From positions 200,204 through 264,203 of IMG/VR virus record IMGVR_UViG_2030936005_000025: 64,000 nucleotides of DNA. One strand, written 5' to 3'. Numbering within the stretch: the stretch's first letter is position 1; each line of letters starts with the position of its first letter. This document shows positions 1 to 63,370 of this stretch, one piece after another. The translations under genes were made by a program, and so were the position numbers. This DNA is from a virus. Lineage: Duplodnaviria; Caudoviricetes. The notes under the pieces are model-generated. The model had not been told where the DNA came from. It made no database searches and saw nothing but the letters and a program-made list of their open reading frames with translations.

Positions 1-1
1 G

Positions 2-79
2 AGTAATGACCGCCTGGAATTCCCGGAACCTCAAATTAAATTTGAGATCGAAAGAACATTGACGCTGGTTGCGAGTTGA
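2..79 (+). CDS. 3' end of a CDS entering from the left (…EFPEPQIKFEIERTLTLVAS*)
   Basis: Open frame from position 2 to TGA at 77-79, translated by hand; start lies outside the window. Confidence 0.4.
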   Translation, partial: SNDRLEFPEPQIKFEIERTLTLVAS

Positions 80-209
80 TAACGAAACCAAAGTCATGGC
101 TCCGGGAATTACTGATTTAAATATCGAAGGCGGTAATATTATTTAGAGTCTATCTTATTTATCTTTTGACTGAACTTTCTCAGTCACTAAAAATATAAAG
201 GTAAGTAAA

Positions 210-692
210 ATGGATTCTATTGGGATGTTACTGTTGGCATTAATTGCAGGTGTCGGTATTGGTTCTGCGATCACTATTTTGATTCAAAAGCGTCGCGACG
301 CTGGAACGGTTGGTACCAATCCAGAACTGCACGCGTATATCACTTCTGCCGAGGCTAAACTTCAGGCTCAAGTTGATGAGCTTAAAACAAAACTCCTACC
401 TGCCGATACACAAGAGAAACTCAAAGGTATTGGCGATGGGTTACTGTCAACGATCAAAGATAAACTGCTTGACGATCTCTCTGGTTTGAGACTCAATGGC
501 GAATCACATCTTCAGCAAATCGAAGATATCGTGAAACGCATTGAAGGTCTGACTGAAGCTGAACTCGTCAAACTGCATCTGGAAAAAGAAACACCGCCCG
601 CTGATCCAGTGTTGGCTGTCTCTCCTTCCGATCCACAGACAGTAGTCTCTTCTGAACCAGCGATTCCTGCTGATCAGAATAAAGTCGTTTAA
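210..692 (+). CDS. Hypothetical protein with N-terminal membrane anchor and coiled region
   Basis: 160-aa ORF; hydrophobic MLLLALIAGVGIGSAITILI followed by KRR; AAGG upstream of ATG. Confidence 0.8.
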   Translation: MDSIGMLLLALIAGVGIGSAITILIQKRRDAGTVGTNPELHAYITSAEAKLQAQVDELKTKLLPADTQEKLKGIGDGLLSTIKDKLLDDLSGLRLNGESHLQQIEDIVKRIEGLTEAELVKLHLEKETPPADPVLAVSPSDPQTVVSSEPAIPADQNKVV

Positions 693-698
693 GTATTT

Positions 699-774
699 GC
701 TTCCATAGTTCAGTCGGCAGAACGGTCGCCTGTTAAGCGATATGTCGCAGGTTCGAGTCCTGCTGGAAGCGCCA
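699..774 (+). tRNA. trnN: tRNA-Asn (GTT)
   Basis: 76 nt; acceptor GCTTCCA/TGGAAGC; anticodon arm GTCGC-CTGTTAA-GCGAT; T-loop TTCGAGT; discriminator G and encoded CCA. Confidence 0.97.
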
Positions 775-800
775 ATTTACATTCACATCTGCCAGTTACT

Positions 801-904
801 GCGGTCGTGTCTTCAGAGGCACCGTAAATGTATGATAGTGGATGATTAGTTTCTACCACTGGATATCTTTACAATAGTTAGGTTAAATCCCTAAGGCCGC
901 GCCA
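801..904 (+). ncRNA. tRNA-like RNA A (long irregular helix instead of an anticodon arm)
   Basis: Acceptor GCGGTC(801-806)/GGCCGC(895-900) then G-CCA; hairpin GTGTCT-TCAG-AGGCAC; long arm GTAAA…AGTGG/CCACT…TTTAC; T-arm TTAGG-TTAAATC-CCTAA. Confidence 0.7.
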
Positions 905-913
905 GATTTATAT

Positions 914-1047
914 GAGGGTCGTGTCGTGGGACACAAGTTCAGTTATGCTCTAGCGATCTAAGATCGTGAACCCGTTAGCGGTGAAGATAGACAACTCTAC
1001 TTCAACTGTACTGAATGATAAGCCGAGTTCGACTCTCGGGATCCTCT
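914..1047 (+). ncRNA. tRNA-like RNA B (multibranched domain instead of an anticodon arm)
   Basis: Acceptor GAGGGTC(914-920)/GATCCTC(1040-1046); hairpin GTGTC-GTGG-GACAC; helix GTTCAGT/ACTGAAT enclosing sub-hairpins; T-arm CCGAG-TTCGACT-CTCGG; no encoded CCA. Confidence 0.75.
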
Positions 1048-1120
1048 ATCAACTTCATAATGTCATGAAGATCCGTACCTACCGTTTTGGTTTTTGGTAC
1101 CCAATCCATGAGGAAGTAAT

Positions 1121-1444
1121 ATGTCAAATTTAGAAAAAGAGTTAGAATCAAGATATTTCGCTCGCATTCCAGATGTTGGTGAGAGAACTAACAATGATCC
1201 AGCTTATTTGATGTCAAGTAATGATGTCCTTAAACTGATCAAAGCTATGTACCAGGATGGTTGTGACGCATCTGGCGACAGTCTTGAACCTGAACGTTTT
1301 AAACACCCCATCATTCTGGATCGATCATCGGGTAAAGAAGTTATCACCAGTTATATGGTCCAGGGGATTATCAAAGAAGCCACCGTAAATCACGGATGGT
1401 CTGATGTTAAGCTTTATGGTAAACAGCTTCTGTTTATTAAGTAA
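1121..1444 (+). CDS. Hypothetical protein
   Basis: 107-aa ORF with GAGGAAG ribosome-binding site; followed by a terminator. Confidence 0.8.
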   Translation: MSNLEKELESRYFARIPDVGERTNNDPAYLMSSNDVLKLIKAMYQDGCDASGDSLEPERFKHPIILDRSSGKEVITSYMVQGIIKEATVNHGWSDVKLYGKQLLFIK

Positions 1445-1453
1445 AATTAAATG

Positions 1454-1492
1454 AAGAGAGAAGGGGTCGGTTGATCCTTTCTCTTTTTGTTT
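1454..1492 (+). terminator. Intrinsic terminator
   Basis: Hairpin AAGAGAGAAGGGGTC-GGTT-GATCCTTTCTCTT followed directly by a T-rich run. Confidence 0.8.
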
Positions 1493-1506
1493 GTCTGGAG
1501 ATATTT

Positions 1507-1617
1507 ATGAGTATCTTAAAGAAGCTCCATAATTGGTTTTATAAAGACATGGTTTATTCTGTTTCTGCCGATGCTTGGTTTTACCAAGAAGGCGCAACAG
1601 GTGAATGGGTGGATTAA
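1507..1617 (+). CDS. Small hypothetical protein, 36 aa (MSILKKLHNWFYKDMVYSVSADAWFYQEGATGEWVD); not in ORF track
   Basis: GGAG site at 1497-1500; TAA stop abuts the ATG of the next gene. Confidence 0.65.
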   Translation: MSILKKLHNWFYKDMVYSVSADAWFYQEGATGEWVD

Positions 1618-1857
1618 ATGAAAGATCAGATACCTGAAGGTTTTGTTCCAGATAACTTTAAGTTCATCAGTAACCAACCTCATTTAACAGTCAGTGGTTT
1701 TACTATGGTTAATCCCTTGGCCACCAAACTGTTAGTTGAAGTAGAGCGTCAATTAAAATCACCGCGCAATGCGATGCAAAAGAAAACAAGATCACCTTTA
1801 GATGTTCCTTCTTCTGGAATGTTCTATTGGTCACCTCTCAATTCAGTAGGAAAGTAA
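1618..1857 (+). CDS. Hypothetical protein
   Basis: 79-aa ORF packed between neighbours with TAA-ATG junctions. Confidence 0.65.
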   Translation: MKDQIPEGFVPDNFKFISNQPHLTVSGFTMVNPLATKLLVEVERQLKSPRNAMQKKTRSPLDVPSSGMFYWSPLNSVGK

Positions 1858-2112
1858 ATGAAAGTTGTGATTTACGGAAAACCTGCGTGCGTGTTCTGTA
1901 CTCGTGCGAAGGACTTAGTTAAGGCCAAAGGAATCGATCATGAGTATGTCGATATCATCGAAACCGGCATGGGTCGTGAAGGCCTGGAAGAAATTGTGGG
2001 AGGTCCTGTTACGACCGTTCCTCAAATCTTTGTCGATAATGTTCATATTGGTGGTTATACTGATCTGGTATCTCACCTTGTCAAGTCTGACGAATCCGAA
2101 GTAAAGGTGTAA
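1858..2112 (+). CDS. grx: Glutaredoxin (phage NrdC/Grx-like)
   Basis: YGKPACVFC active site; TVPQIFV…HIGGYTDL glutaredoxin signature. Confidence 0.95.
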   Translation: MKVVIYGKPACVFCTRAKDLVKAKGIDHEYVDIIETGMGREGLEEIVGGPVTTVPQIFVDNVHIGGYTDLVSHLVKSDESEVKV

Positions 2113-2114
2113 TT

Positions 2115-2252
2115 ATGGATTTTGATTTGGATGATCTGAACCTTGAAGGTTTGGATGAAGCTGAAGCTCGTAACAATGAGCGCCAGGAAGCGGCTGATAA
2201 AGCTGCGGCAGCGGTTGGCGATGAAGCTGACTGCGAAGGTTGTAAAATCTAA
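2115..2252 (+). CDS. 45-aa acidic peptide ending in CxxC (…DEADCEGCKI), resembling a ribonucleotide reductase alpha C-terminal tail; not in ORF track
   Basis: Translated by hand: MDFDLDDLNLEGLDEAEARNNERQEAADKAAAAVGDEADCEGCKI; starts 2 nt after the grx stop with AAGGTG upstream. Confidence 0.8.
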   Translation: MDFDLDDLNLEGLDEAEARNNERQEAADKAAAAVGDEADCEGCKI

Positions 2253-2278
2253 TTTTGATAAGGCGATAAGTTTTGACC

Positions 2279-2416
2279 ATGAAAAAGAAAAAGACTTCTT
2301 TGAAAGAAAAGATCCGTCGCCAGAATCAGAATGCTGAGAAGACCTTATACCTCGATGGCGCTGGTGATACTTTCACGATGACCAAAACCAAAGACGGCTA
2401 TAAGTTAAACGTGTAG
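2279..2416 (+). CDS. 45-aa basic peptide (MKKKKTSLKEKIRRQNQNAEK…); not in ORF track
   Basis: Open frame from ATG 2279 to TAG 2414-2416; AAGG upstream; stop lies inside a GCAA-loop hairpin. Confidence 0.6.
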   Translation: MKKKKTSLKEKIRRQNQNAEKTLYLDGAGDTFTMTKTKDGYKLNV

Positions 2417-2432
2417 GGTAGCAATACCCTAC
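2413..2432 (+). terminator. Hairpin with GCAA tetraloop (possible terminator or processing/stability element)
   Basis: GTAGGGTA-GCAA-TACCCTAC; weak T-tract downstream. Confidence 0.5.
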
Positions 2433-2478
2433 TCCTATATTTCATCTCCAACCACTACTATGACCGAGAGAGAAGAAT

Positions 2479-3087
2479 ATGAAACTTAAGTTGATTACTG
2501 TTGATAAACGTACCTACGCAATTAAGACTCGATATATCGAGCTGAATAGTGATGCCAGTGTGCATTACCGCTCCCCTATCACTGGAAAATTCCCAACAGG
2601 GGATGACGATACAATTACTGATGTGCTCAGGTCAGCTCCACCTACTGCCGTTGCTGTTGTGTATTCTTGTAACAGAGAACCAATCTATATTGAAAAGCAT
2701 GACGGTGCGTATGTTATCTCTGAAGCTAAGACCATTGAGATTGTCAATCAGCCAGTGGACTTCGATGATGTTGATTTCTGGGTTAACACCAAAGGCGAGG
2801 AAGAGTGGAAAAAGGTTGGACTAGGATATTACATTGAGTATTCTAGAGTACACCTGAATGACAGTTACCAGGTCGCTCAAAAGGATTTCAATTTAAATGA
2901 AAAAATGCAAGGGATAGTCCACCTGCCAAACGGTCAACTTGGTAAAGCAGTAAGATGGTATCTCAATGGATCGAGGACTTGGCTTAGAGTCACTGAGGGG
3001 ATGAGTGAGGATATTCTTTCTAAACTGACCGTGATCACTATCCTTGATGGAAAAAATCCTAATGACCCAGGGTATAAACTTCCATAA
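2479..3087 (+). CDS. Hypothetical protein
   Basis: 202-aa ORF with GAGAGAG purine-rich leader; no family recognised. Confidence 0.8.
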   Translation: MKLKLITVDKRTYAIKTRYIELNSDASVHYRSPITGKFPTGDDDTITDVLRSAPPTAVAVVYSCNREPIYIEKHDGAYVISEAKTIEIVNQPVDFDDVDFWVNTKGEEEWKKVGLGYYIEYSRVHLNDSYQVAQKDFNLNEKMQGIVHLPNGQLGKAVRWYLNGSRTWLRVTEGMSEDILSKLTVITILDGKNPNDPGYKLP

Positions 3088-3096
3088 GTATATTAT
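3082..3096 (+). promoter_or_regulatory. Phage early-type promoter upstream of the large ncRNA
   Basis: CCA-TAAG-TATATTAT matches the TCA-N4-[T/G]ATAT[T/C]AT motif found upstream of six leftward cassettes in this window. Confidence 0.65.
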
Positions 3097-3100
3097 GTAA

Positions 3101-3955
3101 TTCAATCGAGTGTAACTGATCGCTGTTCTGCGGAATAGTATGGTTTCATCACCCCGTTATATTCGACTGTAAGACCCTCGTTATCCAGGTGTGGGTACAT
3201 AACGAGGGCAGTGTCCGGTGGGTTGCACTACCGGACTAAATCCAAGAGTGAACGGCGGCTTAAGCCCGCTACTGTAAGTAGCTCTTGGTTGGGTGATATT
3301 ATGTACTTTCACTGCATAATGTCCTCTGGCGGTGGTTGGACTTTTGGCGTTCTTCGCCATTGTCTGACAGATCACCGCACCCCTTTGTACCAGTGGCTGA
3401 TATCCAAGTAGAGCTTTAATTATACCTGACGGATAGCGCTCACAGTGTTTCAACCATTGGTACATCCTCTTGAGGATCTTGAACGAAAACCGTAGGGTAA
3501 CCGCCGAGCACATTGCGTTGCATTCAAGGCGGCTTAAGCAGGGGACTAGGTAGTCTTCCTGGGTGATATCAAGATCCTCAAACCTACTACTCTCCGTGAT
3601 ATGGAGTAGACACCCCGTGGTGGGGGCATCGTAACCATCTGATGAGTCCGCGATGAGAAATAAAGAGACGAAACGGGTTCTGTCGTTCGGAGACTCCAAC
3701 TCCTGACAGATCCGTCATGAATCGCTCTGCCTTAACTGTGAGGAGCAGCCTCAATCTACGATTCTAGAGGAACAGCAGCGTTACTGAAAGATCCACGGCA
3801 AATGGATCGAAGCAGATAACAAACAGTCCGCTCCCTTTGCCAGGGGAGAAGTTGTTAAAACCAAGAGGTGTAGACAGCCTTTAGATCACCGTGGTAGTAA
3901 AATGGGGTTGCTCCCAGAGTAGCTATCAGAAAGTGGTCTTTAGAGTGGCTATACA
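3101..3955 (+). ncRNA. Large, highly structured non-coding RNA (about 850 nt), family unknown
   Basis: No credible ORF; more than 15 hand-paired helices including 3175-3184/3199-3208 (10 bp), 3213-3219/3230-3236, 3386-3396/3454-3464 (11 bp) and 3470-3482/3569-3581 (13 bp perfect); own promoter; downstream hairpin. Ends are approximate. Confidence 0.75.
3613..3677 (+). ncRNA. Hammerhead ribozyme fold (type III), GUG triplet variant
   Basis: CTGATGA (3639-3645) and GAAA (3670-3673) cores; stems I, II and III all pair; 5-bp loop I/loop II complementarity CATCG/CGATG. Confidence 0.65.
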
Positions 3956-4005
3956 AAAAAAAATAACAGATCGAGATCCTCTACTCTCCTAACGGAGAGT
4001 AGAGG
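3955..4005 (-). terminator. Hairpin terminator with displaced T9 tract
   Basis: 12-bp stem CCTCTACTCTCC-TAAC-GGAGAGTAGAGG (3978-4005); A9 at 3955-3963, 14 nt away. Confidence 0.7.
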
Positions 4006-4011
4006 TAATCT

Positions 4012-4437
4012 TTATGCTGTCAAATAAAGTTCAGCCCAGATTTTAAATAAACGTTTCATGTCATTTGCGATCAATCCTAATGCCCGTGTATTTTTCAAGT
4101 TACCGGCATACAACCAAAGTTCACACTCAGGTTCACCTACGATCACAATGTCATTGAAATACATGACCAGAGATTTGGATGAGGTAGCAATGAGATCTTT
4201 GCGATTAACTGCAAAGCAGAATTCATTGGATTCAAGAATCACATTGTAGAAATAAGTGAACAGAGCTGCATCAAAACTGTCTGGTTCTAATTCATAAGTC
4301 TCAGCTAACTTAATGCTCTCCTCTTCATTAATAGCTAATTTAGTCAGAGAGTCGTTACCGGTGATAGCAGACAGGTTGCGTTTGAAGATGGTTTCCATGA
4401 TAGCTTTCCTTAATAAGTTAAGAACATTATTGTTCAT
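4012..4437 (-). CDS. Hypothetical protein (early cassette; similar to 7975..8400)
   Basis: 141-aa ORF bracketed by the promoter motif and a terminator. Confidence 0.8.
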   Translation of the reverse strand: MNNNVLNLLRKAIMETIFKRNLSAITGNDSLTKLAINEEESIKLAETYELEPDSFDAALFTYFYNVILESNEFCFAVNRKDLIATSSKSLVMYFNDIVIVGEPECELWLYAGNLKNTRALGLIANDMKRLFKIWAELYLTA

Positions 4438-4446
4438 ATTACTTAA

Positions 4447-4461
4447 ATGATATAGGGCTGA
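4447..4461 (-). promoter_or_regulatory. Phage early-type promoter
   Basis: Minus strand reads TCA-GCCC-TATATCAT, 10 nt before the ORF start. Confidence 0.7.
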
Positions 4462-4586
4462 AATCGAATGCAGCTAACACCTGACCTGTTTGATCATATG
4501 AGCTCGTTCCATATATGTCCTAGGATGGATAGTATATGAAACATCTTATTAGTTATAATAAGACTATTTCGAAATAGAGGTAACAT

Positions 4587-5441
4587 ATGAGTTTAAGCAA
4601 CCCGGTCGATTTTGCTATCGACTATGTGATAAACGGTCCGACCGATATCACGGAATATTTGTTAAAGCTTGCATTCTATAATCCGAACAACGGGTACAAT
4701 GCAATCTGGGGTCCGATGAATGACTCGTTTAGTATCGAGCAAGGTATCCGTGAGAAAGTTGTGAATAAGATGGTCGCTCCTCTACTTAAAGTAGCTGGCG
4801 GTCAAACTGAGATCATTGATCTTTCTGGTGCTCAAATTGAGAACCTGGCGGGTGGTGTTATCTGGGTCAGTGTTCCTGACTTCTTAACCGGTGGCCGTCG
4901 TATTCTGGAAGTCATAGAAGTGTATCCAGGAAACATTAACCGAGCGATTGCTAATGGTTATAACTTTGGTAACTACGCTAACTGTGGTGCCAGTATGATG
5001 AACAACTCACTGAACCGTTTAATCAGTGGTCTGGATGACGGTAACGTCACCCGTTCATTCAACAGCTTCACCATGGTGGGTCCAAACTCCTTTATCATTC
5101 GTGATGCAGGTTCAGCCATGTTTAATATGATCGCCAAAGTAATCTTGTCTTATGACGAGAACTTTAGCGGTGTTCCTGTTAAGATGTTTGATAAGTTTGC
5201 TGAACTCGTTGAGTTAGGCACTAAAGCCTACATCTATAAAACGTGTCGCCGTGGTATGCAGGAAGCTGTATCACGTTTCGGTGTAACAGTCGATGACGTT
5301 CAGGATGATATTCAAGGTTATGCCGATGCTGCTCAGCAATTCAAAGACTTCTATAATGACCGAATGAAGAAGTATATGGCCTACGCTGATGCTAAAGGTA
5401 AGACTGACACTCTTAAAATGATTGTTCCAAGGAAACGATAA
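4587..5441 (+). CDS. Conserved jumbo-phage protein, probably virion structural
   Basis: 284-aa ORF, GAGG site, overlaps the next gene; function inferred from context only. Confidence 0.7.
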   Translation: MSLSNPVDFAIDYVINGPTDITEYLLKLAFYNPNNGYNAIWGPMNDSFSIEQGIREKVVNKMVAPLLKVAGGQTEIIDLSGAQIENLAGGVIWVSVPDFLTGGRRILEVIEVYPGNINRAIANGYNFGNYANCGASMMNNSLNRLISGLDDGNVTRSFNSFTMVGPNSFIIRDAGSAMFNMIAKVILSYDENFSGVPVKMFDKFAELVELGTKAYIYKTCRRGMQEAVSRFGVTVDDVQDDIQGYADAAQQFKDFYNDRMKKYMAYADAKGKTDTLKMIVPRKR

Positions 5442-7538: not shown

Positions 7539-7587
7539 AAAAAAATAAATGATTAAGACCCTCTACTCTCCGTTAGGAGAGTAGAGG
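7537..7587 (-). terminator. Hairpin terminator with displaced T9 tract
   Basis: Stem 7560-7571/7576-7587 is an exact inverted copy of 3978-4005; A9 at 7537-7545. Confidence 0.7.
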
Positions 7588-7593
7588 CGATCT

Positions 7594-7938
7594 TTATTTG
7601 CTCATGCGTGTTGCAATCATGCCGTTTTCAAACAGCGTCCCAACAAACAGCTCACCTTTTTCAAAAAAGTTATAAAGGTTATCTTTGGTGATGGGAAGTT
7701 TGGTATTAACCAAGTTAATAGTTGTGTAGAACCCACAACTGTTTTCAAAGTAGTTAAAGCGGACTTTGATCAACTGATCAAAAGCCATACCTGAGATCCA
7801 AGCAGAACCGTTCAAATAACCCACGGTAAGGATCAGGTCTTTATCGGTAATTTTACGGCTTGCGATATAGTTATCAGTATCCAGCCGTGATTCAGGTTTG
7901 ACAATAAATTCAAGAAACTTTTTCAGTTCAGCATTCAT
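7594..7938 (-). CDS. Hypothetical protein
   Basis: 114-aa ORF in a leftward three-gene cassette. Confidence 0.75.
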   Translation of the reverse strand: MNAELKKFLEFIVKPESRLDTDNYIASRKITDKDLILTVGYLNGSAWISGMAFDQLIKVRFNYFENSCGFYTTINLVNTKLPITKDNLYNFFEKGELFVGTLFENGMIATRMSK

Positions 7939-8400: not shown

Positions 8401-9061
8401 CGCAGATATTATAAGCTACCGCTTCGGCTGCATCGATAATGGACTGATCAACCGGTATTTGTTGATAGAGTCTTTGAACATCCAATACGATAACTTTCAG
8501 ATTACCGTCATGCCAGCCCCAGGATTTTACACCATGGGTCTTCTCGAGTACTGCTGAAACTTCAACAGAGCAACGATCGTTACTAACTTTAGTTTGAACA
8601 ACCCATTTGGGTTTATCCGCGACCACTTTGTTATGACACGGATTATATTTAGAATCAATAATACGGCCACTTGCATTTTTGATAATCAGTGAGAAATGAT
8701 CTGTTTTCTCAGTAAGGATATCGAACACTTCTTTTCTGTAGACCTTATCCTGTAAGTAAACCTTGATCATATCCGAATAGGTCAACTCAACATTGTTTAA
8801 ATTGCCTGACTTAATAACCGCATCGCTAATACCCGTCAGCGCTTTAGCTGTGGTTATAATTTGATCTTTAGGGAAATAACCATACCTTATGCTAAACAGT
8901 TCATCTAACTCTTGGAACCAACAGAGAAAGATAGCACCCATGATATCATCGCTTTGATATTCATTATCAGCAATGAATGCCTCTAATCGGGAAACTTGTT
9001 CAGCATCTGCATGATAACGACCATCAGTAATAATAGCCATGTGTTTTAAAAGATTTGACAT
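8378..9061 (-). CDS. Hypothetical protein
   Basis: 227-aa ORF; GAGG site; promoter motif upstream. Confidence 0.8.
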   Translation of the reverse strand: MSNLLKHMAIITDGRYHADAEQVSRLEAFIADNEYQSDDIMGAIFLCWFQELDELFSIRYGYFPKDQIITTAKALTGISDAVIKSGNLNNVELTYSDMIKVYLQDKVYRKEVFDILTEKTDHFSLIIKNASGRIIDSKYNPCHNKVVADKPKWVVQTKVSNDRCSVEVSAVLEKTHGVKSWGWHDGNLKVIVLDVQRLYQQIPVDQSIIDAAEAVAYNICVEKNSAN

Positions 9062-9200: not shown

Positions 9201-11522
9201 ATGAGTCAGTTAGAAAGAGCCAAACAGGTTCTGGAGCATCTTGGGTTGAAGTACTCAAGCCTTCCTGAATACTTGATGGATGACAAGAATAAACGTACCA
9301 AGTTAGAAGACGAAGACGATCGTGTTCTGGCTCACTTTCAAGAAGACACACTCTGGACATTAAAAACTGTCCGGTTCTTGAAAGACTTCCAACGTTATAA
9401 TGCCGGTGTTCATATTAACACCTCGAACAAATCGTTCAAACGTACGGCTGAGTTATTTAAGTCAATGGGGGTGAAGAACTACTTCTTCATGCTTCAACTT
9501 AATAACCCCATGCTTCAAGACATTGATCCCTGGGATCCAAACCTGGATGACGTCACTAAAGCAATGATCCATGCTGAGTGTAATGAAAACATTTGGTACA
9601 TCATCCGTGAAGTGGTGATGATCGGTGGTCGCCGCTTCAGAGGGAACCGTGCGGTTGTCTCCTTTATCTGGGCATGCTTGTGTCATATCCCGACAACGAT
9701 ACTGATGCCTCGTCAGTCAGGTAAAACAGTTGGGATGCAGGTACTGGCCTTTATCATGCAGTACTTCGTGGGACGTGGTTACCGTACCGGGTTAATTACC
9801 CTGGCTGCTTCTAACCGAATGCAGTTCATTGAAGCCATTAAGAAGATACGAGCCGGTCTGCCCGATTACCTTATTAATGTCACTTATAAAGATAAGGATG
9901 CTGGTAACGTACTTTCTTATGAAGCGTTCGGCGTAGAGTATAAGAACACCTTTGAGGTTCGTGTTCCTTCCGGTGGTCGTGACGGCGCAGAGAACGTCTC
10001 TCGTGGTGCTACACTTGAAGCACTCTTGTATGACGAACCGGCATGGACCAAGTTCATTGAAGAGATCATTAACGGTTCGGGTCCTGCGACCCTGACTGCT
10101 CAGAAAGAAGCACGTGAGAAAGGCATCCCTTACTTCACGGCCAAAGCAACTACACCAAACTCGATTCTGAAAGAAGAAGGTGCTTACATGCACAAAGACT
10201 TCATGGAATCAACCGAGTGGCGTGAAGCGTTCTTTGACAGCTTCTCTGAATCTCATCTGGTACACCGTTTAATTAAAGCAGCACCGGTTAATACCACTTC
10301 TCCAAAAATCGGCATGATGTTTACACACCTGCAGTTAGGTCTGGGACATGGTTGGGTTAAAGAGACAATGGATAAACTGGGTCTGTCTTGGTCTAAGGCT
10401 AAGATTGACTTGCTGATGATGTGGACGGAAGAAGGTGAGAGTAAACTCTTTGATGACTTCACTCGTGAAAAGCTTGCAGAAAGTAAGCAAGATCCAGAGT
10501 GGAATGAAGAAGTGCTTGATACCGGACTGTTTATTGACTGGTTCGTAAGCAAAGAAGGACTGGATGCGTACAGTGAAGATCCTGATGAATTCATTCTGTT
10601 CGGTATGGATACCTCAGATGCAAACAACCGAGATGCGATGACACTGGTTGCACGTCGAATGAAATCAGGTGAGAACCTGGGAGTTGGTCGCTACCCATTG
10701 GCGTTTGCCGATGACGTAACAGAGGTCTTAAAAGAACTCTTAATTCGTATTCCCAATAGTCTCCTGATCATTGAACGTAACCGTGCAGCTCACATGATCG
10801 AGCGTCTGCTTCTGACTTTACCTGCCTACGGGATTGATCCATTCAAACGTATCTTTAACGATATTATTCAGGATCCAATCAAGTACAAAAGTGAATACCG
10901 TGATGTGATGGAGATTCACTTTAAACATCGCAGTAAAGAGTTCTATCTGAAATACAAACGTCACTTTGGTTTCTATACCGGACCACAAACTCGTCGTGAG
11001 ATGTACGGCTTTATTCATGAGGCTGTTTCATTAACAGGAGCAGGTATTCGTTACAAACTCCTGGTTGATGAGTTGATTGGTTTGGAAGTAAACTCTGACG
11101 GTCGTATTGACCACGGTAACAAGACTCACGATGACTTGGTGGTTGCGTGGCTGTTGACTTACTGGTTTATCAAACTTGGTTATAATAAGTCGTTCTACGG
11201 CATTCCTCAGGGAATGACCATGACACAGATCATAACCTTGAAAGATAATGGTGACACACCACAGTACACCCGCCAACAGTTGGAGTTCTTCATTAAGGTC
11301 AAGGCACGTATCAACGACCTGACCAAAGAACTCATGACGGCTACTAATAACATGATCGCTGAACGTATTGAGATGGAAGTCCGTAAGCTCTCGGAATTGA
11401 TTCCTAAAGAGATGAAGAAAACTATTACAATCGACAGCATCATTGAGGAAGCGAAGACAGAGCGTTCTAAACGTATCGTGGCTAAGCGTTCTCGATTTAG
11501 TAGCACTATGCGTCGTTACTAA
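9201..11522 (+). CDS. terL: Terminase large subunit (phiKZ gp25-like)
   Basis: MPRQSGKT Walker A; LYDE Walker B; GMDTSD and HDDLVVAWLL nuclease motifs; synteny with the sheath and tube genes. Confidence 0.95.
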   Translation: MSQLERAKQVLEHLGLKYSSLPEYLMDDKNKRTKLEDEDDRVLAHFQEDTLWTLKTVRFLKDFQRYNAGVHINTSNKSFKRTAELFKSMGVKNYFFMLQLNNPMLQDIDPWDPNLDDVTKAMIHAECNENIWYIIREVVMIGGRRFRGNRAVVSFIWACLCHIPTTILMPRQSGKTVGMQVLAFIMQYFVGRGYRTGLITLAASNRMQFIEAIKKIRAGLPDYLINVTYKDKDAGNVLSYEAFGVEYKNTFEVRVPSGGRDGAENVSRGATLEALLYDEPAWTKFIEEIINGSGPATLTAQKEAREKGIPYFTAKATTPNSILKEEGAYMHKDFMESTEWREAFFDSFSESHLVHRLIKAAPVNTTSPKIGMMFTHLQLGLGHGWVKETMDKLGLSWSKAKIDLLMMWTEEGESKLFDDFTREKLAESKQDPEWNEEVLDTGLFIDWFVSKEGLDAYSEDPDEFILFGMDTSDANNRDAMTLVARRMKSGENLGVGRYPLAFADDVTEVLKELLIRIPNSLLIIERNRAAHMIERLLLTLPAYGIDPFKRIFNDIIQDPIKYKSEYRDVMEIHFKHRSKEFYLKYKRHFGFYTGPQTRREMYGFIHEAVSLTGAGIRYKLLVDELIGLEVNSDGRIDHGNKTHDDLVVAWLLTYWFIKLGYNKSFYGIPQGMTMTQIITLKDNGDTPQYTRQQLEFFIKVKARINDLTKELMTATNNMIAERIEMEVRKLSELIPKEMKKTITIDSIIEEAKTERSKRIVAKRSRFSSTMRRY

Positions 11523-11571
11523 AAAAAAATAATGAAGATAATGAACCCCTACTCGTGAGAGTAGGGGTTCA
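11521..11571 (-). terminator. Hairpin terminator with displaced T9 tract
   Basis: 13-bp stem TGAACCCCTACTC-GTGA-GAGTAGGGGTTCA; A9 at 11521-11529. Confidence 0.7.
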
Positions 11572-11574
11572 GTC

Positions 11575-12126
11575 TTATGGAATGGTGATCGACATGCCAT
11601 TGGTTAGATAGGTGTCTTTTAACACTTTCAAGAGAACCTCAGTCAGCGCATCTTCGTATCCAGAAGAATGCGGCGCAGAGTAAGCCAGTTTATTGTTTTG
11701 ATAAATATCAATAAACTTCATGCTGCCGTTCTTAGTTTCTACCGTGGTGACAGTACCATATAAACCACCGGTGAATAACGAAGTAGTGAATCGATGATCA
11801 CGAATAGTATCAAGAATAGAACCCACTTCACTTCTGATAGAGCTTTCGATATATTTACGAGCGCCCTTGATGAGTTTTTCAGTAATGACGTGGATCGGTT
11901 CATGTAAGACTTGATCATGTCCCAGTAACAGTTCTACCCTGCAAATTTCTTCACCCTCAATGGTGATGGAATAAGAGGTGTCCCCCGTAGCTGATAAACG
12001 AATTGCTTCAACGTTATTCTCTTTCCAGAGATCGATGTAATAAGGAATGTTATCCTTACTAACTGACTTCATGGCTTCTGAAAACTTGGTAGCGATGGTG
12101 TTGAAATTTTGTTTGGTAGCGAGCAT
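11575..12126 (-). CDS. Hypothetical protein (single-gene early cassette)
   Basis: 183-aa ORF between the promoter motif and a terminator. Confidence 0.8.
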   Translation of the reverse strand: MLATKQNFNTIATKFSEAMKSVSKDNIPYYIDLWKENNVEAIRLSATGDTSYSITIEGEEICRVELLLGHDQVLHEPIHVITEKLIKGARKYIESSIRSEVGSILDTIRDHRFTTSLFTGGLYGTVTTVETKNGSMKFIDIYQNNKLAYSAPHSSGYEDALTEVLLKVLKDTYLTNGMSITIP

Positions 12127-12166
12127 AACTAAGGTCCTATTAAATTAAGCGTTGGTTAACACTTAG

Positions 12167-12181
12167 ATAATATAGACTTGA
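12167..12181 (-). promoter_or_regulatory. Phage early-type promoter
   Basis: Minus strand reads TCA-AGTC-TATATTAT. Confidence 0.7.
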
Positions 12182-12183
12182 AT

Positions 12184-12227
12184 AAAAATAGAAACATAAC
12201 TCTACTCTCCCTTTCGGAAGAGTAGAG
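12184..12227 (-). terminator. Hairpin terminator
   Basis: CTCTACTCT/AGAGTAGAG stem at 12200-12227; A5 11 nt away. Confidence 0.6.
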
Positions 12228-62200: not shown

Positions 62201-62207
62201 CATAATT

Positions 62208-62237
62208 CCCTTACCCTCCGATAAGGAAGGGTAAGGG
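62208..62237. terminator. Hairpin between convergent genes
   Basis: CCCTTACCCT…AGGGTAAGGG stem. Confidence 0.6.
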
Positions 62238-62248
62238 TTTATGCATGG

Positions 62249-63370
62249 TTATGCTTTAAAGATATGTGGCGAGTCAATCAGACCCAGACGCATGGTGAAC
62301 ACACGTTCGAAACCTTGAGACATTGGCAGCAAGATGTTCTCGGTATAACCTTGCAGTGCAGGAGTCACAACCTTGTTATCTTTACGACCGAAGATAGCGA
62401 AAGTATCCAGATCAATTGACCAGACTTCCACACCTTCCTGTAAAGGAATGCCTTCCAGCATTTTGAACAGCTTGTCAACTTCTTTATCCAGGTATTCGAA
62501 ACACACTTTGTTGTTCGGTGTTTCTTTACCCACAGAACTCCAGTCATCACGACCGCCGAACTGGAAGAAGGTAACGTTCTGATCCAGGAAAGGAGGAAGC
62601 AGTACAGCGTTGATCAATGTCTCAGCATACTTGGTGAGAGTCTCAACTTCTGCAATGCGCTTAGACTCAAACACTGAACGCACCAGACCGTTGATGTGAT
62701 CCAGACGAGAAACAACTTTCTCACCGGCATTCGGCATGTAAGTTTTCAGGTCTTCAGCAGTGATTGGTGTACGCTGAATTTCCAGACCGTCGTTGGCTGG
62801 ATCGATTGGTAACACTTTGTCGAAACAGAGTTCCGCTTTGAACTTACGGCCTGGCTCACTACGGAAGGTTACAATCGCATCGAAGTCCTTAACGATGTTG
62901 GTATCCAATGCAACCGCTGCCATCTCTTTATTGAGAATCAGAGCGATCTCAGCGATGGTTTTGGTTGTAGCGGTCATCAGACCACGGATGCGGTTTTCAA
63001 CGTTGGTGTAGTCGATGCCCATCAGTGAGTAGAACTCATCTTCTTCATTGATGGTGAACGGTACGTCGAGCACATCAACGTTTGGACGAATCTTGTCAGG
63101 TTGGTTAACGCTCCAAACTGACTCGTACATTTCCTGAGCAACACCGGCCAGGTTCTTGCTGAGCTCAACCCAGAATTTGCCGTACAGATCGTCAGCGATG
63201 TAGATCAACTGGTCACCCAGCGATACTTTGTAACGACCCAGATATTCCTGCTTTTCAACGGAGTATTTTTCAGGGTTCACGACCTTCATACGAAGATGAC
63301 GAAACATCAGATACAAATTGTAGTGGTTATCATCTTCGAAAGTCATTTCGTGTAAGTGTGGTTCATTCAT
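62249..63370 (-). CDS. Hypothetical protein
   Basis: 373 aa, acidic, biased codon usage. Confidence 0.8.
   Translation of the reverse strand: MNEPHLHEMTFEDDNHYNLYLMFRHLRMKVVNPEKYSVEKQEYLGRYKVSLGDQLIYIADDLYGKFWVELSKNLAGVAQEMYESVWSVNQPDKIRPNVDVLDVPFTINEEDEFYSLMGIDYTNVENRIRGLMTATTKTIAEIALILNKEMAAVALDTNIVKDFDAIVTFRSEPGRKFKAELCFDKVLPIDPANDGLEIQRTPITAEDLKTYMPNAGEKVVSRLDHINGLVRSVFESKRIAEVETLTKYAETLINAVLLPPFLDQNVTFFQFGGRDDWSSVGKETPNNKVCFEYLDKEVDKLFKMLEGIPLQEGVEVWSIDLDTFAIFGRKDNKVVTPALQGYTENILLPMSQGFERVFTMRLGLIDSPHIFKA

Follow-up and report, generated by a model that had tools for sequence, protein, structure and literature searches.

A probable self-processing noncoding RNA gene of phiKZ-like jumbo phages, with two modules separated by a predicted hammerhead ribozyme

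What does a jumbo phage keep in almost a kilobase of DNA that encodes no credible protein? The question is raised by positions 3088–4011 of the window, by which we mean the whole stretch of 64,000 nucleotides (nt) analyzed here, positions 200,204–264,203 of the 264,203-bp virus record IMGVR_UViG_2030936005_000025. The record represents a phiKZ-like jumbo phage whose nearest cultured relative is Erwinia phage AH04, and no credible gene was found in 3088–4011. A first-pass annotation, made from the sequence alone, had proposed that 3101–3955 specifies one ornate noncoding RNA (ncRNA) of ~850 nt. We find that the gene-free ~0.9 kb (3096–4012, plus strand) is a real, conserved and heavily folded ncRNA gene outside the catalogued families. 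The unit, of ~915 nt and without a conserved open reading frame (ORF), consists of covarying domains D1, D3 and D5 and a variable domain D2 whose helices are weakly backed, together with a hammerhead ribozyme. The likely reading, in our view, is that of a phage gene whose ncRNA product has two modules and processes itself; the gene runs from a promoter-like motif to a terminator, and its transcript would be cut by the internal hammerhead.

The interval has the character of an RNA gene. The plus strand of 3101–3955 has a folding energy of −310 kcal/mol against −268 ± 5.8 in dinucleotide shuffles (z −7.3), clearly below these controls, and because the minus strand reaches a z of only −2.6, the folding signal is strand-specific. 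The G+C content is 0.48–0.50 in the interval versus 0.38–0.44 in its flanks. Homologues were sought by blastn against phage genomes, by a tblastn walk from the neighboring DUF7484 gene and then by pattern scans, which yielded 13 distinct sequences at the same locus of OBP/AH04-like phiKZ-type jumbo phages and metagenomic relatives. The cultured phages with the RNA gap are AH04, Kc263, Survivor, Yubaba/Sureiya, N1M2, SXP01, OBP and pEt-SU; the pattern scans contributed four metagenomic relatives, one of them a metagenome contig and the other three IMG/VR genomes, and found no copy in bacterial genome contigs; the scan of metagenomes brought in only two contigs. In the relatives an unannotated gap of 0.75–1.2 kb separates a tRNA/glutaredoxin cluster from the DUF7484 gene; the RNA locus is fixed in position and single-copy, and the 13-sequence alignment consists of invariant blocks with variable helices between them. 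The earlier view that there is no credible ORF was borne out, since none of more than ~100 amino acids (aa) is common to the 13 homologues in any frame. The only long ORF in the interval is not a gene:

3181–3699, minus strand: antisense ORF of 172 aa

It is open in the window genome alone, and tblastn meets stops and frame changes in its four closest relatives, AH04, v15, v17 and v18; there is no protein-level conservation, so the ncRNA call stands.

Between D3 and D5 the region holds a complete, canonical hammerhead of type I, whose pseudoknot covaries and from whose sequence self-cleavage is predicted. Its parts are as follows:

3627–3719, plus strand: type I hammerhead between D3 and D5, with a predicted cut at C3716/A3717
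3639–3645, plus strand: core segment C3-U4-G5-A6-N7-G8-A9 (CUGAUGA)
3670–3672, plus strand: core segment G12-A13-A14 (GAA)
3636–3638/3717–3719, plus strand: stem I
3646–3649/3666–3669, plus strand: stem II
3673–3678/3710–3715, 3680–3684/3705–3709 and 3689–3692/3700–3703, plus strand: stem III, which opens with A15.1-U16.1 (A3673-U3715)
3627–3632 with 3650–3655, plus strand: covarying pseudoknot between the segment 5′ of stem I and loop II

The conserved blocks stand in the type I order (CUGA-N-GAGUC ... GACGAAACGGG ... CCGUC), and the topology is also that of type I: loops cap stems II and III, and stem I is open. Among the 13 homologues the core is invariant, N7 (U, A or C) being the sole varying position; the cleavage-site features A3673-U3715, C3716 (C17, not G) and G3646-C3669 (G10.1-C11.1) are present, and CCGUC is invariant in all. 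A hammerhead covariance model was built and the 13 homologues were realigned with it (alignment A5), the controls for this and the other domains being 500 column shuffles and pairing with slid partners. Standard pairs make up 89.8% of A5, and 21 of the 32 pairs have changed on both sides (shuffles, 0/500; slid partners, 31–47%). Compensatory pairs are found at 3 of 3 positions in stem I, 10 of 15 in stem III and 1 of 4 in stem II, the rest of which is invariant. In the pseudoknot, 4 of 6 pairs are compensatory and 94.9% of the cells are paired, with CG, UA, AU and GC all represented; its variants CAUCG/CGAUG, CGUCG/CGACG, UGUCG/CGACA, GUUCG/CGAAC and CCCG/CGGG leave the two strands complementary in every homologue. 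A hammerhead descriptor matched the 264-kb genome once, at 3627–3719, and none of 40 dinucleotide shuffles, and the covariance model likewise found a single copy in the genome. Hammerheads stabilized by a pseudoknot are established as a class, are active in experiments and occur commonly in phages (PMC3088659); Perreault et al. (2011) found the pseudoknot to be common and required for fast cleavage (PMC3088659). An alternative topology, with stem III formed from CCCGU at 3614–3618 and a G at position 17, was rejected: this segment reads CCCAU or CCCUU in relatives, and CCGUC does not vary.

Hammerheads were also seen elsewhere. A sister of the one described here is present in Klebsiella phage phiKp_32 (LC768500.1; L029/L035) at 1485–1600 (39.9 bits, E 7e-8), with pseudoknot CGUCG/CGACG and a GUC cut site, in a different gene-free gap of ~1 kb (1261–2249) at which the D1, D3 and D5 profiles found no match. 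The unrelated G+C-rich viral contig IMGVR_UViG_3300045136_000538 (L016; 17.5 kb) has hammerhead-like motifs at 8870–8955, 11175–11250 and 12100–12215, three in 3.3 kb, and resembles prophage multi-hammerhead arrays.

Upstream of the ribozyme lie the three domains of what we call the body:

3097–3296, plus strand: D1, a 5′ helical region with hairpins 3173–3187/3192–3209 and 3214–3218/3231–3234 and invariant GUAAGACC at 3169–3176
3242–3253/3278–3288 with 3254–3259/3264–3270, plus strand: forked helix of D1, which also contains an invariant AAAUCC linker
3295–3465, plus strand: D2, short here and in v18, with hairpins 3295–3305/3313–3323, 3329–3341/3362–3378 and 3386–3396/3454–3464
3466–3626, plus strand: D3, in which the long-range helix 3470–3482/3569–3581 closes a junction, with invariant GAACGA (3481–3486) and GAUAUC (3565–3570)
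3501–3505/3528–3532 and 3541–3546/3553–3558, plus strand: inner hairpins of D3, followed by hairpins 3586–3610 and 3613–3616/3622–3625

Of the five domains, four (D1, D3, the hammerhead and D5) have helices backed by compensatory changes, 87–90% of the cells being paired versus 31–52% with slid partners, and in D1, D3 and D5 column shuffles almost never give values as high (slid controls, 33–52%). D1 (alignment A4, 13 sequences) has 86.8% of its cells paired and compensatory changes in 31 of 51 pairs (shuffles, 0/500; slid, 33–50%); the pairing of its first ~70 nt is the least certain. For D3 (alignment A6, 12 sequences) the corresponding values are 86.8% and 17 of 32 pairs, with the covariation score reached in 0 of 500 shuffles. 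Covariation support for the variable D2 is weak: helix 3386–3396/3454–3464 shows one compensatory change, in Kc263 (UGUGCC/GGCACA versus UGUACC/GGUACA), and most relatives possess an extra conserved subdomain of ~120 nt. The conserved motifs GUAAGACC, AAAUCC, GAACGA and GAUAUC are unpaired and lie at junctions. All 15 helices listed by the first-pass annotation proved complementary, 14 of them pairing fully and a proposed closing helix at 7 of 8 positions; those at 3175–3184/3199–3208, 3213–3219/3230–3236, 3242–3248/3282–3288, 3470–3482/3569–3581, 3501–3505/3528–3532 and 3892–3897/3923–3928 match helices that covary. Palindromic CUUAAG loops were considered as kissing-loop dimer sites and dismissed, the UUAA at 3260–3263 being AGAA, GAGA, GGUA or CAUA elsewhere.

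Could the interval instead be the remnant of a mobile element, of an intron (group I/II or a homing cassette) or of a protein gene? Phage tRNA regions often carry introns and homing endonucleases, there is an HNH gene in the tRNA region of Aeromonas phage PS1, and N1M2 and Kc263 have ORFs annotated inside the homologous gap. These annotated coding sequences, N1M2_252 (L006 1871–2383, minus strand) and QYN80068.1 of Kc263 (L002 3013–3204, plus strand), the latter overlapping the hammerhead, are nevertheless probably spurious calls, as judged from the reading frames, none of which is kept across the homologues in any frame. The Rfam models of group I/II introns, RNase P RNA and transfer-messenger RNA (tmRNA) gave no match at E≤10 in the window or the Yubaba copy, and no flanking exon halves are present; the first-pass annotation had recognized none of these motifs and had overlooked the hammerhead. 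At gathering score, Rfam matches in the whole window and the 13 related loci were confined to tRNAs, with no family matched in the RNA interval, and no credible match emerged when the window, the Yubaba copy and the gap of PS1 were scanned permissively, the window at E≤10 yielding a weak hammerhead match only. Furthermore, the locus is fixed and single-copy, and the compensatory changes reflect selection on RNA pairing. Decay of such an element is largely refuted, and we regard it as very improbable.

The region 3′ of the ribozyme behaves differently from the body in its distribution. Its main features are:

3717–3960, plus strand: D5, with hairpin 3724–3731/3738–3746 and invariant loop GCCUUAACUGUGA
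3780–3783/3817–3820 and 3823–3836/3843–3855, plus strand: further helices of D5
3870–3898/3922–3952, plus strand: long hairpin of D5

In alignment A7 (10 sequences) 89.8% of the D5 cells are paired and 33 of 64 pairs show compensatory changes (shuffles, 0/500), the long hairpin contributing 15 of 24; GUAGACAGCC is invariant. Survivor, SXP01 and pEt-SU are without D5, the terminator following the hammerhead after ~15–20 nt, and a D5 covariance model found nothing in the rest of these three genomes. Conversely, Aeromonas phages PS1 and AhC3_1 have D5 at the same locus, with a weak match in CF8 (E 0.013), and in these three no body or hammerhead was detectable. Because some phages lack D5 and others have D5 alone, it is an independent module. 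In a relative from rhizosphere run X15, 3128 other letters (3.1 kb) replace D5 (window 3723–3955) between the cut site and the terminator; the site just 3′ of the ribozyme may, from these sequences, be a hot spot for cargo exchange. PS1 (L011) has an unannotated tRNA-like gene at 2041–2122 (Rfam tRNA, 46.7 bits) upstream of its D5-like element, with ~500 nt between the two. A likeness of the Yubaba D5 (L004, 3159–3319; ACCGUAGACAG ... CUGAG plus terminator) to L10_leader (26.3 bits against a cut-off of 44, E 0.016) was treated as chance, since the terminator accounts for most of it and the window copy does not show it.

This modularity bears on whether the transcript stays whole. One could suppose a single intact ~850-nt ornate RNA whose hammerhead is inactive or repressed in vivo and whose 5′ and 3′ parts are held together by long-range pairing. 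The proposed closing helix 3110–3117/3947–3954 is indeed complementary in the window phage, and the relative v17 has a 5′ stretch of 10 nt that could pair with the conserved D5 motif CAAACAGU. However, the best-supported helix of D5, the covarying 3870–3898/3922–3952, claims the 3′ arm for itself; the closing helix is not conserved, and it is impossible in the three relatives without D5. In other phages D5 stands alone. The other 5′/D5 pairings fare no better: the complementarity seen in v17 is lost in the window, in AH04 and in clade 2, and a local 5′ hairpin covaries instead (GCUGUUC, GCCGGUC and GCAGCCC with matching partners). RNAduplex gave uninformative output on the long 5′ and 3′ arms. 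Every catalytic nucleotide, as well as the pseudoknot that is critical for activity, is under selection in the 13 sequences, a further point against an intact RNA.

Contigs from sequencing runs bear on the same alternative. In four runs of one study (X17, X18, X23 and X24), contigs map to the relative L018, in which C17 is position 797 on the minus strand. On the D5 side the contigs stop at 777–780 and on the body side they restart at 812–837, so that the predicted cut (797/796) falls in the gap, and the depths on the D5 and body sides are 387 vs 76, 210 vs 49, 20.6 vs 8.7 and 57.9 vs 8.5, a difference of 2.4–6.8-fold. Because DNA should give one contig of one depth, the breaks and the depth step fit a cleaved RNA whose pieces accumulate unequally; as an indication of cleavage at the predicted site they are suggestive only. 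Pointing the other way, a contig of another relative from X15, labeled as metatranscriptome, spans the cut site unbroken. Among the sequencing runs on record as RNA, none contains the RNA stretch. On balance an intact molecule seems to us quite unlikely. What stands of the original proposal is a large multi-domain phage ncRNA, conserved and covarying, with a promoter-like motif and a terminator and without an Rfam family; one closed molecule does not, given the predicted split by the hammerhead and the separable D5.

The ends of the unit and its surroundings are marked by the following features, the tRNA having been located with ARAGORN, whose tRNA/tmRNA scan of window positions 1–4600 found it alone:

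699–774: tRNA-Asn, upstream of the RNA unit
1858–2112: glutaredoxin, upstream of the RNA unit along with several small ORFs
ending at 3087: 202-aa ORF, the last upstream of the RNA unit
3080–3096, plus strand: promoter-like motif ending in TATATTATG, made up of the AT-rich block TATATTAT and of TATG (3093–3096), which overlap
3978–4012, plus strand: intrinsic terminator, a 12-bp hairpin (3978–4005) followed by a U-rich tail
4012–4437, reverse strand: 141-aa ORF, the first downstream of the RNA unit
4587–5441: conserved DUF7484 virion protein, downstream, followed by a 490-aa protein and thymidylate kinase
7539–7596, 11543–11571, 12198–12227 and 62202–62267 (genome 207742, 211746, 212401 and 262405): terminator hairpins of the same type, with more elsewhere

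The upstream phage promoter motif noted in the first reading is kept at 3080–3096 in the five closest relatives, and its TATG aligns with TATG in Kc263 and OBP. Early promoters of jumbo phages are AT-rich and centered at −10, and late promoters read T-3 A T G+1 (PMC7598289), a description that the motif fits on its sequence; a transcript start at ~3096–3102 is accordingly what we infer. The 264-kb genome contains about eight sites like it, and the TTCMA-N4-TATATTAT form of the motif that precedes the RNA has two more copies, at window positions 12174 and 30606 (both minus strand). The strong downstream hairpin reported earlier is the 12-bp hairpin of the terminator, which is kept, with covariation, at the RNA end in all homologues. 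The same terminator type (CCCUACCCC ... GGGGUAGGGG then UUUAUG) recurs at other gene ends throughout the genome. In relatives, TATG directly follows the terminator hairpin and, to go by its sequence, may double as a late promoter start.

This arrangement suggests another use for the unit, mainly in cis: the hammerhead and terminator would insulate an early tRNA/redox operon from late virion genes, or set transcript stability, and the domains would be only stabilizing. In its favor, the tRNA/glutaredoxin cluster invariably stands on one side of the unit and the DUF7484 virion gene on the other, TATG comes straight after the terminator in relatives, prophage hammerheads that flank gene blocks are known (PMC3088659), and one relative has 3.1 kb instead of D5 downstream of the ribozyme. 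Yet a hammerhead and a terminator require ~150 nt rather than 900, a reverse-strand ORF intervenes between the unit and the virion gene in the window phage, and the more than 500 nt of D1–D3 keep invariant single-stranded motifs and covarying junctions across genera, as is typical of specific tertiary folds. We therefore judge a mainly cis-acting element unlikely.

Under the preferred reading, of a two-module RNA that processes itself, transcription would run from ~3096–3102 to ~4012 and give a precursor of ~915 nt, which the hammerhead, from the known chemistry of its class, should cut at C3716/A3717 during or just after transcription. The 5′ product would be a body RNA of ~620 nt (~520 nt of D1–D3 plus the ribozyme) ending in a 2′,3′-cyclic phosphate, and the 3′ product an RNA of ~290 nt, D5 plus terminator, starting with a 5′-hydroxyl. 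With a stem I of only 3–4 bp, the two products are expected to come apart and seldom to be religated; nor was any phage-encoded RNA ligase of the RtcB or Rnl2 type found by which their ends might be joined again or circularized. The comparative anatomy suggests that body and D5 would be independent RNA genes with the ribozyme as divider and that, where D5 is missing, the ribozyme would merely trim off the terminator. Because the phages without D5 still keep the hammerhead, what stays constant appears to be a body RNA whose 3′ end the ribozyme would generate. At the other end, the body of Yubaba, N1M2 and metagenome contig m21 starts ~20 nt past a tRNA 3′ end, and in these phages tRNA-processing enzymes would presumably make the 5′ end of the body, which would then be a stable-RNA member of a tRNA operon.

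As to what the products do, we suggest with low confidence, by analogy, that both pieces are trans-acting, stable protein- or RNA-binding RNAs tied to the tRNA/translation island or to host takeover. We put forward, tentatively and as somewhat less than an even chance, that the body represents a new class of ribozyme-matured ornate RNA in the nucleus-forming jumbo-phage clade whose fold, with its invariant unpaired junction motifs, would do a sophisticated job and need a precisely trimmed, cyclic-phosphate 3′ end, for instance to form an RNA-only assembly or to act as decoy or scaffold for host factors of translation, tRNA targeting or RNA decay, with D5 a second, independently evolving RNA obtained from the same cut. 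If this is true, hammerhead-divided multi-RNA precursors could be general in chimallivirus RNA biology, given the sister hammerhead of phiKp_32.

Several points weigh against this interpretation. The best Rfam match of the ribozyme, Hammerhead_3, scores 16.3 bits against a cut-off of 48.5 and is partial (3626–3679), and the Yubaba copy has no match to the Rfam hammerhead models at E≤10; the low score is probably due to the 43-nt stem III and to a pseudoknot that lies outside the model. Stem I is only 3 bp in the window phage. The four runs with contig breaks are represented by Logan contigs from a single study of a relative phage, their RNA nature being a guess, and the X15 contig is unbroken. 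The 13 homologues fall into two main clades, and many of the compensatory cells derive from few events. The family is narrow, as seen from searches with the body and hammerhead models that gave no significant match in five Aeromonas phages, RisingSun, EL, FishSpeaker or pTD1; the more distant chimalliviruses RisingSun and FishSpeaker have only ~95 nt at the locus, without a match. Finally, the functional role is a guess, for the evidence names no target or partner.

These matters are directly testable, as phages and hosts are in culture (Erwinia AH04, Klebsiella N1M2, Pseudomonas OBP, Serratia Yubaba and Kosakonia Kc263) and the cut is predicted to the nucleotide. For jumbo phages that cannot be engineered, antisense knock-down methods are available (PMC12571901). 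The findings are also of use in annotation, the ORFs that N1M2 and Kc263 have annotated in the corresponding stretch being probably spurious. They further suggest a concrete job for phage hammerheads, that of cutting apart stable RNAs and trimming their ends.

Very few classes of structured ncRNA longer than 500 nt are known from bacteria and phages: ribosomal RNA, RNase P, group I/II introns, GOLLD, ROOL and OLE. Each of these classes is biochemically remarkable, and the RNA described here would add a further family, with an unfamiliar fold of ~520 nt and a built-in hammerhead. Neither the body nor D5 belongs to an Rfam 15 family, and we found no literature describing either, nor any that deals with jumbo-phage hammerheads or with large structured RNAs of such phages. 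Stable RNAs other than tRNAs occur inside phage tRNA gene clusters, namely the species 1 and 2 RNAs of T4 and the RNAs of T5. Like these, the RNA of Yubaba, N1M2 and m21 is seemingly co-transcribed with phage tRNAs, whereas it is several-fold larger, its own ribozyme is predicted to form its 3′ end, and it is not known to be related to them in sequence. Theta ribozymes, which resemble that of hepatitis delta virus, process tRNAs in gut phages. There, too, a small phage ribozyme sets the end of a neighboring structured RNA, but the ribozyme is of another class and the matured RNA is a tRNA rather than a large ncRNA.

The hammerhead itself adds a new member to a class already known. With the pseudoknot-stabilized hammerheads (Rfam clan CL00010; PMC3088659) it shares the full core, the three stems, type I topology, an intergenic phage context and a 6-bp pseudoknot from the stem I side to loop II. 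It differs from them in standing at the 3′ end of a conserved structured RNA of more than 500 nt, in falling below Rfam thresholds, in its 43-nt stem III with a conserved YUCCA loop and in a stem I of 3–4 bp. A survey of structured viral RNAs in IMG/VR reported motifs of 29–151 nt only. Closer in scale are GOLLD and ROOL, which are phage-associated and tRNA-adjacent (PMC5737381), and OLE. The RNA described here is like GOLLD, ROOL and OLE in its size class of 500–900 nt, its many junctions, its phage-borne state and its place beside tRNAs (PMC5737381, PMC12286853), a resemblance in kind rather than homology: when the window and the larger RNA of Yubaba were scanned with the GOLLD, ROOL and OLE covariance models, no match was obtained, either at gathering score or at a permissive E≤10. 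Unlike them, it possesses a self-cleaving ribozyme, is made as a two-module precursor and belongs to phiKZ-like jumbo phages that infect Gammaproteobacteria.

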